A DNA stretch of 64,000 bases. Origin: Promethearchaeota archaeon (GTDB lineage Archaea > Asgardarchaeota > Thorarchaeia > Thorarchaeales > Thorarchaeaceae). Each line of letters begins with the position of its first letter. The first letter of the stretch is position 1. The notes below the pieces were generated by a model. That model was not told the DNA's origin. It worked only from the letters and a program-made list of their open reading frames with translations, and did no database searches. Positions 57,039 to 61,078 of this stretch are shown here, one piece after another. The position numbers were made by a program, and so were the translations under genes. Where the stretch lies: contig WJMJ01000071.1 of assembly GCA_014728035.1 (NCBI GenBank), forward strand, positions 32,001 to 96,000, written 5' to 3'.

Positions 57039-57446
57039 ATGAAACTAGACGAGGGTACTTATGTGATATTACAGTCTGCTCAAGGAGCATATGCATGTAG
57101 AACGTTACCAATTCCAAAACATTGGAATCCTATAAGCAGACCTCATGTAGCCTTGCTAATTCCGGATAATGGGAAAGTATTCAAACTATATCTTTCTGAA
57201 CCAAATTTGGAATGCACTCTAGAAGGCAATCCCATTTTGGTTTCTGATTTTGATACTATTCCTGATAGAGCAATTATTGAAATAAGATATACATGTCTCA
57301 ACTATTGCTTCTACAGACGTGATCGTGATATCTGGATCAAGGTTGCAGAAGCAGATTCCCCGTTCATAATCGAAGTTTTTTCTTATGGTTATGATTCAAT
57401 CATTGTAGAAACATCTCCTTTTCCACAGGTATTTGATTTCTGTTAG
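57039..57446 (+). CDS. hypothetical protein
   Basis: 135-aa ORF with GGAG upstream. Confidence 0.5.
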   Translation: MKLDEGTYVILQSAQGAYACRTLPIPKHWNPISRPHVALLIPDNGKVFKLYLSEPNLECTLEGNPILVSDFDTIPDRAIIEIRYTCLNYCFYRRDRDIWIKVAEADSPFIIEVFSYGYDSIIVETSPFPQVFDFC

Positions 57447-57465
57447 AGGTGTAGAATAACTAAGT

Positions 57466-57499
57466 AAAAGACAGAATGGGGGGGAGACCTCCCTCATTC
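57466..57499. terminator. hairpin terminator, possibly bidirectional
   Basis: gaatggg...ga-gacc-tccctcattc. On the minus strand it is followed by tgtctttt. Confidence 0.55.
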
Positions 57500-57526
57500 A
57501 AAATAATAATTTTTGCATCATAAACA

Positions 57527-57720
57527 AATTGAAGGTGCGAGGTGCGCCAGGAAAAATAGTACGCTTGGTTGCTTGAGGAGGTTAATCGCGACTTTTTCAG
57601 TGCGATTGGAGGAGAGGATGTGTGCACCTTTTGTGCAATCAGGATTTTTCAGGAGGGAGCATCACTATTGATGACATTCGTCAAATGTGATGTTTGGCGC
57701 TCCTCGACACGCATTCAATT
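57527..57720 (-). ncRNA. candidate structured small RNA 1 (multibranch, CCUCC linkers; strand uncertain)
   Basis: Long closing stem (aattgaa..cgagg.gcgcca / tggcgc.cctcg..ttcaatt) and three internal hairpins. TTTTAAAT lies ~20 nt upstream on the minus strand, with a terminator downstream. Confidence 0.5.
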
Positions 57721-57858
57721 GTATGTACCACAATAATACATTTAAAACTTGTGATAATCTCTATTAATTATTCTATTTATTGCGATTTTCACAATATTTG
57801 GCGGGGATTAGGTTCGTCCAAGAATTGATTATATAGTTTTGAACATATTATATTATTA

Positions 57859-57941
57859 GGAACGACCTGAGGACTATTCTTGTTATGATCATTCCGTAAC
57901 ATTCTCTCTCCTCCTCCAGCGTTAATTTCTCAGGTCGCTCT
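57859..57941 (+). ncRNA. candidate small RNA 2 (closing stem, CUCUCUCCUCCUCC loop)
   Basis: Stem cgacctgag/ctcaggtcg and internal hairpin tgttatg/cgtaaca. TTATATAG at 57829-57836 and a pyrimidine tail. Confidence 0.4.
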
Positions 57942-58009
57942 TCTTCTTCTATTAATATCATCAACTTATCATCACAATAATAAAACACCCATGTTGACAT
58001 TACATACAC

Positions 58010-58040
58010 TTATATTATAATATATTATATTATAATATAA
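58010..58040. repeat. tandem duplication of an AT-only palindrome
   Basis: ttatattataatata + ttatattataatataa; the 16-mer is its own reverse complement. Confidence 0.7.
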
Positions 58041-58201
58041 CGGGGGCCACAATCATCCGCTACACACACCCTCTCTCTCAGATTTGACGTCCAATTCCAC
58101 AAGCGCTGCGGATTCGATTCCTCCTATTTTTGGCCCCCAGACCTTCTGCTATCCAGCAAGTTTTAAAGGACTTCTACATTGCACTCGAATGGAGAAGAAC
58201 A

Positions 58202-58573
58202 ATGTCATCAATTGCGAAAAAAGCAGTCGACAGTACGGTGAAACGGATTTTACTTCATATGGCAGAGATAATTGCATCAATTGGTATATTGATCTTGATA
58301 TGTTTACCACTTCTCTTTGCTATTCCTCAATGGTTCCAGCTTGTATTGTTCTATTCGCCATCCCTTGATTTGCTTGTAAATCCTGTTGCATGGTTAAATG
58401 CCAGTGGTGCCATTATGGCCATTGTTGCACTTGCTTTTGTAGGGCTAATATTCGTGTATCCAATAATCACGAAGATAGCTTCGTCAGGTCTTGAAACTGA
58501 TGATGATTACATCGACGAGGACGAAGATGAAGAATACTTTGATGAAGAAATTGAATCAGAAGAGACTGAGTAA
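58202..58573 (+). CDS. small 2-TM protein with acidic tail
   Basis: ATG at 58202 with GGAG upstream; two TM segments; tail DDDYIDEDEDEEYFDEE. Confidence 0.6.
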   Translation: MSSIAKKAVDSTVKRILLHMAEIIASIGILILICLPLLFAIPQWFQLVLFYSPSLDLLVNPVAWLNASGAIMAIVALAFVGLIFVYPIITKIASSGLETDDDYIDEDEDEEYFDEEIESEETE

Positions 58574-60409: not shown

Positions 60410-61078
60410 ATGGGTTTTCTGAGTGGTAAGAAAAAAGTCGATTCCGAACGTGGAATTCTTGAAATAAAAGGTACTATGAATGCTCTAACATTACGTATCA
60501 GACGACTTGATACACGAATGGCGGAAGAACGTAAATCCGCAAAGGACGCTATGAAACGTGGCGATAGATCTAGTGCAAAAGCACATCTAACTCATGTAAT
60601 GGACCTAGAGGGACGTAAAAGTCGCTATCGTCAGCAGGTTACTACTCTTGAAACAGCTCTTATGAATCTCGAAGAAGCTCAGGACCAAGCTGAGGTGTTG
60701 AGTGCATTCAAAATTGCAAATGCTGCTTTGGCCCAAGCTCGTGAGCTACTTAGTCCTACTGAAATTCAGATGCAACTTGACCGTCTATCTCAGTCTTTCG
60801 AGCATATCTCTATTGCTGGTGAACTTCTCTCTGAAGATCTTTCAAGTGGTGCAACAACTCTTGAGGCAGAAGAGAGAATTGATAGAGAATTAGATGCCAT
60901 TGAAGCTGAAGTTCTATTAGAGAAAGAAGGAGTACTTCCTCCACTCGAAGACGAAAGGGAAGCGGAAGCAGTTACTTCTGCAGATTCAGGTTCTAGTAAA
61001 GAAGAACGTATAGATGCAATGTTAGCAGACTTAGAACGTGAGGCTAGAGAGGAACGAGAAAAAGAAGCACAGAGCTAA
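60410..61078 (+). CDS. ESCRT-III / Snf7-family protein (Vps20/32/60-like)
   Basis: MGFLSGKKK, basic helical hairpin (AKDAMKRGDRSSAKAHL), LEEAQ..AEVL, acidic half with IDRELDAIEAE and LPPL. Confidence 0.8.
   Translation: MGFLSGKKKVDSERGILEIKGTMNALTLRIRRLDTRMAEERKSAKDAMKRGDRSSAKAHLTHVMDLEGRKSRYRQQVTTLETALMNLEEAQDQAEVLSAFKIANAALAQARELLSPTEIQMQLDRLSQSFEHISIAGELLSEDLSSGATTLEAEERIDRELDAIEAEVLLEKEGVLPPLEDEREAEAVTSADSGSSKEERIDAMLADLEREAREEREKEAQS

Follow-up and report, generated by a model that had tools for sequence, protein, structure and literature searches.

A conserved, structured, single-copy RNA gene with probable exposed CU-rich blocks in a family of Thorarchaeota

Between two small open reading frames (ORFs) of a Thorarchaeota genome lies an island of about 195 nt whose ends pair with one another and enclose three hairpins. 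Does this locus encode an RNA and, if so, which strand is transcribed and what could the product do? An earlier note on the window, the whole 64-kb stretch of DNA analysed here, had proposed a structured, trans-acting small RNA that could mask Shine-Dalgarno (SD) sites. We find that the island, called element A (Table 1), is a genuine single-copy, structurally conserved non-coding RNA gene of a Thorarchaeota family; its function is something that we only infer. The RNA family is well supported, and the assignment of its strand fairly well.

The GC content of element A is 0.42, against about 0.31–0.39 in its flanks, in agreement with the GC-richer island first described. For the plus strand the minimum free energy (MFE) of the segment is −75.3 kcal/mol, with a z-score of −5.11; the minus-strand values are −56.5 kcal/mol and −4.99. 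None of 200 dinucleotide shuffles was as stable on either strand, placing both folds beyond chance. In the MFE folds of both strands the ends pair as predicted, forming the closing stem P1, and the three predicted hairpins are present; the three linkers, purine-rich on the plus strand and of CCUCC type on the minus strand, are unpaired in the minus-strand MFE structure. The two strands fold alike because the core of P1 is GAGGAGCGCC/GGCGCUCCUC on either strand. Inspection of P1 revealed no K-turn or BHB motif. No Rfam family matched at gathering score in the whole 64-kb window, nor was a relevant family found at E ≤ 10 over 57300–58200, where sub-threshold snoRNA matches fall elsewhere in the region; element A thus matches no described RNA family. 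A tRNA search of the window found none. On other contigs of the same genome (C51 and C151), ARAGORN proposes a candidate tRNA-Pyl and a candidate tRNA-SeC.

Homologues were gathered as partial BLAST matches in relatives, then trimmed and aligned to give a covariance model in plus-strand orientation (R1). Exactly one full-length copy per genome is found by R1 in 45 of the 86 genomes of the family, representing 13 of its 16 genera. The sister family, consisting of a single genome, has no match, and 113 other genomes of the phylum gave nothing convincing, with a single match at E = 0.003. In the 45-sequence model alignment, standard pairs occupy 83.2% of cells, compared with 36–52% when the partners are slid by 1–3 columns. 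Changes on both sides are seen in 31 of the 35 pairs of this alignment, and no shuffle attains the observed scores. Compensatory changes reach every pair of the P1 core (15/15) and double changes every pair of P4 (7/7). The homologues range in length from 96 to 196 nt, and only the closing stem P1 and the unpaired interior blocks are family-wide features. P3 and P4 are absent from homologues of about 100 nt, and the third hairpin (57584–57607) is confined to the window's genus (genomes G000 and G001). The proposed arrangement of three hairpins and three linkers therefore holds for the window but not for the family, in which the inner hairpins are optional. Across the family there are two conserved CU-rich blocks, a number that becomes three in the window because the extra hairpin splits one of them.

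Table 1. Features of element A and its surroundings (positions in the window; for element A and its parts, the probable strand of transcription is given).
Feature	Position	Strand	Basis or remark
135-aa ORF	57039–57446	+	Strictly syntenic across genera; convergent to A
sRNA gene A	57527–57720	−	Folds, covariance model match of 90 bits, 45 covarying homologues; 194 nt from stem to stem
P1 3′ arm of the minus-strand RNA, GGCGCACCUCGCACCUUCAAUU	57527–57549	−	Pairs with 57695–57720
U-tract UAUUUUUCC, Sm-site-like	57550–57558	−	Just 5′ of the P1 3′ arm; consensus aAAa on +
Unpaired CU block AACCUCCUCAAGCAACCA, 3′ half of invariant core	57566–57583	−	MFE and conservation
Extra hairpin splitting invariant core	57584–57607	−	Window's genus only
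Unpaired CU block CACAUCCUCUCCUCC, 5′ half of invariant core	57608–57622	−	MFE and conservation
P3 hairpin, optional	57623–57637	−	MFE folds; missing in forms of about 100 nt
Unpaired CU block CUCCCUCCUGAAAAAUCCUGAU	57638–57659	−	MFE; consensus cccuccu..aauccu
P4 variable hairpin, optional	57660–57692	−	MFE folds; 7/7 pairs covary
P1 5′ arm of the minus-strand RNA	57695–57720	−	Inferred transcription start at its base
TATA box of A, TTTTAAAT on −, preceded by BRE-like CACAAG	57740–57747	−	PWM and conserved position
Candidate operator O1, TTGYGA-N3-TCRCAA palindrome, degenerate in window	57749–57763		Offset +30–34 from stem end across genera
Candidate operator O2, TTGCGATTTTCACAA	57780–57794		Fixed offset +63–67
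TATA box of B	57829–57836	+	23 nt before B stem in window; 24–30 nt in G005, G029 and G016
RNA gene B	57860–57950	+	Stem 57863–72/57929–38 around loop CAUUCUCUCUCCUCCUCCAGCGUU; fold z = −2.8
TATA box of C, ACTTATAT	58008–58015	+	Conserved about 26 nt before C stem
RNA gene C	58042–58138	+	Stem GGGGGCCA/UGGCCCCC (58042–49 with 58131–38)
123-aa ORF, two TM helices and acidic tail	58202–58573	+	ATG at 58202; strictly syntenic across genera

Read on the minus strand, the conserved parts follow one another in the order UCCUCUCCUCCUCAA, gcaacCa..gcgaacc, the block cccuccu..aauccu and the U-tract, which directly precedes the 3′ arm of P1. The unpaired UCCUCUCCUCCUCAA is the most conserved segment, at least 90% identical over 41 sequences, and the invariant core is a 15-nt block that stays constant over 13 genera while the stems drift. 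The U-tract takes the form AUUUUU(U)GG in several homologues, and a RAU4-6GR motif of Sm/Lsm type beside the stem in many of them is a putative protein site. Within P3, A-C oppositions on the plus strand correspond to G-U pairs on the minus strand in three lineages.

Element A is probably transcribed from the minus strand, to judge from its promoter geometry, from the folding of the family and from the orientation of two neighbouring elements (B and C, described below). A 14-column BRE/TATA matrix (PWM) was trained on sequences lying upstream, in transcriptional orientation, of 23 tRNA genes in this genome. About 20 tRNA genes of this genome are crowded on contig C26 and several more lie on C161, a context unlike that of its other tRNA genes. 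At 43 of the 45 loci the matrix scores the box beside element A higher in minus orientation, by 3.4 bits on average. The minus-oriented site averages 6.0 bits, compared with 0.85 for random sequence (95th percentile, 5.0), and no plus-oriented promoter is seen upstream of the element, where the PWM gives 0.93 against the random 0.85. The box previously remarked on at an archaeal TATA distance is in place, and its position is conserved across loci: in 33 of 45, the gap between the end of the TATA site and the outermost P1 pair is 20–24 nt (about 23 nt in the window), matching the 17–29 nt range of tRNA genes with a promoter-proximal site. Independent archaeal RNA genes have a correctly oriented BRE/TATA element about 24–31 nt upstream of their 5′ end, and by its promoter element A qualifies as one of them. 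Applied to one common alignment, RNAalifold gives −18.8 for the minus and −14.4 for the plus strand. The single-sequence z-scores average −4.51 and −3.17, respectively, and the minus strand has the more negative value in 36 of 41 sequences; for the copy in the window the two strands score equally. Of the two orientations that the earlier note had weighed, the minus strand with CCUCC exposed is therefore the better reading. Its remark that G-U pairs fit the plus strand slightly better fails across the family, in which the P1 duplex is more stable on the minus strand in 22 loci and on the plus strand in 17; counts of 94 G-U against 61 A-C, made on an alignment fitted to the plus strand, do not decide the matter.

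T-runs do not discriminate between the strands. At least five T residues occur within 40 nt on the minus side in 7 of 41 loci, and at least four in 20 of 41, and the plus side is similar. In one genus a run of T5-6 follows the stem on the plus strand, as in a plus-strand terminator. This run sits between the minus-strand TATA box and the start, a region that is usually AT-rich, and it could alternatively terminate the convergent 135-aa gene. The hairpin-and-U terminator proposed for the minus-strand transcript did not hold, as the hairpin concerned (57478–57496) is not conserved in homologues and could equally be the terminator of the 135-aa gene.

The surroundings of element A are strictly syntenic: a HAD hydrolase gene (+), the 135-aa ORF (+), element A, a gap of 250–830 nt, the 123-aa ORF (+) and a ParA/NUBPL ATPase gene (−). 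Neither the 135-aa nor the 123-aa ORF has a Pfam or NCBIfam match, the Atlas gave nothing beyond a weak beta-sandwich hint for these small flanking ORFs, and no RNA-binding domain was matched among the ORFs neighbouring the element. A gene of the Snf7/ESCRT-III family near the locus (60410–61078) fits an Asgard host, and such a host agrees with the archaeal promoter that the earlier note had assumed. Next to the TATA box of A are two candidate palindromic operators, O1 and O2, which lie 31 nt apart from centre to centre and keep fixed offsets in most genera; one or both can be recognised in 33 of 43 loci. Operator sites with at most one mismatch number 46 in the genome and 37 in the reversed genome, so that no clear regulon emerges. 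On contig C96 (27650–27735), three operator-like sites and a TATA-like ATAAAGG are found between two convergent ORFs, and this cluster may belong to another gene under the same regulator. Further operator-site leads in the genome are C44:92707 and C105:820.

Beyond the operators lie two more elements, B and C, giving three CU-rich, stem-closed elements within 620 nt. Conservation of B and C was judged by inspection, pattern search and weak reverse-strand matches of the A model. The plus-strand R1 matches them only on their minus strands and weakly, at 6.9 bits in the window and, in reverse orientation, at 12.7 bits for the C element of another genus (g3). Since R1 matches B and C only in reverse and their TATA boxes are on the plus strand, A would be an inverted relative, and B and C look like inverted paralogues of A. 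The conserved part of the B loop is AUUCUCUCUCCUCCUUCCAGCGUUC, and the B stems covary. The C stem encloses CCGCUAC..CCCUCUCUCUCAGAUUUGAC (CCGCUAC..CCUCUCUCUCA), with AUUUUUGG just before the 3′ arm. The B loop motif occurs in 23 of the 86 genomes, with 0 control matches, and these include two genera without a detected A. In one genus lacking A, the locus reads HAD, B, C and membrane ORF, and the 135-aa ORF is missing as well. Conversely, in five genomes, all of a single genus, A retains its TATA box and the two operators but has no adjacent B or C. It follows that the operators travel with A and that the three RNAs are separable genes.

Several other identities of the locus have to be weighed against a minus-strand RNA. 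If the plus strand were transcribed, from a weak promoter of its own or as part of the 135-aa mRNA (its 3′ UTR), the product would be a GGAGG-rich decoy for the anti-SD tail of 16S rRNA or a sponge for B and C. Such an RNA would have the lower absolute MFE (−75 against −56 kcal/mol), the upstream ORF stops 10–15 nt before the element in several genomes, the T5-6 run of one genus follows the plus-strand stem, and sequence inspection indicates that A(+) can pair with the B loop over about 12 bp. We nevertheless consider it improbable: the PWM detects no plus-oriented promoter upstream, the fixed minus-TATA spacing (mostly 20–24 nt) would have to be a coincidence, the z-scores and alifold energies point to the minus strand, and an AUG after the SD-like block is not conserved. 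The sponge in particular was rejected, as the purine block of A remains constant where the B loop changes, with no co-variation between them, and the distributions are uncoupled, A being without adjacent B or C in the five genomes and B without A in the two genera mentioned above. A role without any functional RNA product, in which a conserved structure of the DNA or RNA would separate the convergent 135-aa gene from the promoter region as a bidirectional terminator or insulator, would suit the position between convergent units and the T-runs found on either side in some genomes. It is very improbable, because a terminator does not retain invariant unpaired blocks of 15 nt, optional covarying inner hairpins, a dedicated TATA box at fixed distance and two operators. 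A mobile element (MITE) and a small coding gene are both scarcely credible, even though the ends show inverted pairing and short ORFs of 52–55 aa overlap the element. The MITE, against which the earlier note had suggested counting copies, is refuted by the one full-length match in the 4.3-Mb assembly, the single copy per genome elsewhere and the constant syntenic site. As for coding, no frame survives the whole-hairpin indels and the spread of lengths (96–196 nt), and a small ORF beginning at the ATG after the SD-like block was discarded since neither ATG nor frame is conserved. A riboswitch or cis-acting leader was likewise discarded, for the minus side faces the 3′ end of the convergent gene and the next gene on the plus side is 480 nt off, behind three TATA boxes. 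Archaeal C/D-box sRNAs are 50–70 nt long and have a C box (RUGAUGA) and a D box (CUGA) that form a K-turn. Element A was rejected as one of these; it has two conserved CUGA motifs, but the C box is absent from the minimal forms of about 100 nt.

Taken whole, the locus is best explained as encoding a regulated minus-strand sRNA that acts in trans on SD regions, an account that we favour with slightly less than even confidence. It builds on what is shown for element A: that it exists as a conserved, structured and single-copy element, with a defined promoter geometry and operators. Transcription of the minus strand would proceed from the BRE/TATA at 57740–47 and start at the base of the closing stem, which would join the 5′ and 3′ ends of the RNA. 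The loop within this stem would be largely unstructured and pyrimidine-rich, exposing the invariant UCCUCUCCUCCUCAA and a second block, CCCUCCU. Transcription is probably controlled by a factor binding the two palindromic operators beside the TATA box. The CU-rich blocks would most likely pair in trans with ribosome-binding regions of GGAGG type in mRNAs and so lower their translation, the U-tract before the 3′ arm may be used by a chaperone, and the paralogous CU-rich RNAs B and C encoded alongside probably act together with A.

The genome does use SD sites of the GGAGG type, as the earlier note had assumed. GGAGG peaks at −15 to −12 before the ATG (165 ORFs, against 19 in a background window), and a 4-mer SD precedes 747 of the 2344 long ORFs, where the background window gives 220. 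The 16S 3′ end is GAUCACCUCCU. The assembly has an estimated contamination of 8.5% and contains two different 16S 3′ ends, on contigs C14 and C92. Because SD sites are in use, an RNA with unpaired CCUCC-type blocks could pair with many start regions. The masking of SD sites was not borne out by the target scans. Over 2344 start regions, duplex energies were no better than those of the reversed query, and the genome contains no excess of 11-mers able to pair with the invariant core. The best predicted target, at position 4463 of contig C163, offers 14 contiguous bp (by estimate, about 0.006 such matches are expected) and precedes an accessory gene found in 10 of the 86 genomes; in the sister species the 14-nt site is lost, although the sRNA block there is identical. 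Nor does SD pairing explain the conserved non-CU part, CAAGCAACCAAAGCGAACC. Base pairing as the mechanism, together with its targets, is possible rather than probable.

The same minus-strand RNA could instead work by binding a protein, its CU block and U-tract being recognised by an Sm-like or other protein for titration, scaffolding or delivery. This would fit a 15-nt block that is invariant in 13 genera while the stems drift, the failure of the scans to find complementary targets, a stem-adjacent U-tract resembling an Sm site in a genome with three LSM-domain ORFs, and the two small conserved ORFs without family match that always flank the cluster. To judge by the Sm-like U-tract and by the conserved segment outside the CU blocks, a protein partner appears to matter no less than pairing. 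However, the neighbouring ORFs have no RNA-binding domain match, and base-pairing sRNAs with multiple targets typically have invariant seeds too. We therefore hold the base-pairing model as tentative, and the protein-centred model as somewhat unlikely. Under a wider reading, which is unlikely, Thorarchaeota would possess three dedicated, paralogous RNAs that mimic the anti-SD, A in inverted and B and C in direct orientation, all under the control of a transcription factor. Each would present a loop of CUCUCCUCC type clamped by a terminal stem, with an Sm-like U-tract, and together they would tune translation initiation at the SD-led third of genes or sequester a factor recognising sequences of this kind.

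Element A defines an RNA family that is supported by covariation and delimited by a promoter. It combines a single-stranded block of sharp conservation with two likely paralogues and a pair of conserved operators. Its cluster is a compact regulatory module in the lineage closest to eukaryotes, and the covariance model can serve to annotate such RNAs in further MAGs of Thorarchaeota. Were the CU blocks to act on SD regions, riboregulation of the anti-SD type would have arisen independently in archaea; were the U-tract an Sm site, the family would bear on the early history of Sm-class RNPs. Should the reading of three anti-SD mimic RNAs be true, it would amount to an Asgard-specific layer of global translational control using RNPs like those of the Sm class.

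Our literature search found no description of the element A RNA, nor any study of regulatory sRNAs in the Asgard archaea. An unpaired anti-SD motif of CCUCC type, CCUCCUCCC, is exposed in loops of the cuckoo/CcsR RNAs of Alphaproteobacteria (Rfam ar14 group), in which each CcsR consists of two hairpins with CCUCCUCCC in their loops and homologous copies lie side by side, at a conserved intergenic site by a small protein gene, with condition-dependent promoters (PMC8034643). Element A also shows unpaired CCUCC-type stretches, and the three CU-rich elements here stand side by side in the manner of homologous copies. In contrast, the cuckoo/CcsR RNAs are bacterial and element A is archaeal, with no Rfam match at gathering score or at E ≤ 10. 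The CU blocks of A are junction strands of a large loop that an 18–20 bp terminal stem encloses, with UCCUCUCCUCCUCAA as the invariant block. The cuckoo/CcsR RNAs adjoin a DUF1127 gene (the CIN1 neighbourhood), whereas the ORFs flanking A are without Pfam or NCBIfam match, and each copy here has its own archaeal TATA box where theirs arise by UTR processing.

A precedent within archaea for action in trans is sRNA162 of Methanosarcina mazei, in which a single-stranded linker masks a ribosome-binding site (PMC3510493). Element A resembles it as an archaeal sRNA with a single-stranded region, for which such masking is a proposal; sRNA162 belongs to another phylum, has no sequence or structural similarity to A and has one defined target pair. 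The C-rich seed sRNAs of Gram-positive bacteria, such as RsaE/RoxS and 6C RNA, have repeated unpaired C/U-rich motifs thought to pair with the G-rich SD sequences of many mRNAs. They differ from element A in being bacterial and in carrying these motifs in hairpin loops, and A has no Rfam match. Small RNAs of the Sm class, for example U7 snRNA, combine a CU-rich single-stranded guide with a U-rich Sm site and an adjacent stem. The U-rich Sm-like site AUUUUUGG in element C and in several A homologues recalls this arrangement, as an analogy that implies no homology, and the architecture of A differs in being closed by its terminal stem. On these comparisons, element A may be described as an sRNA with anti-SD-like motifs that stands apart from the cuckoo/CcsR group in its Rfam status, motif placement and gene neighbourhood, and that belongs to another domain of life.
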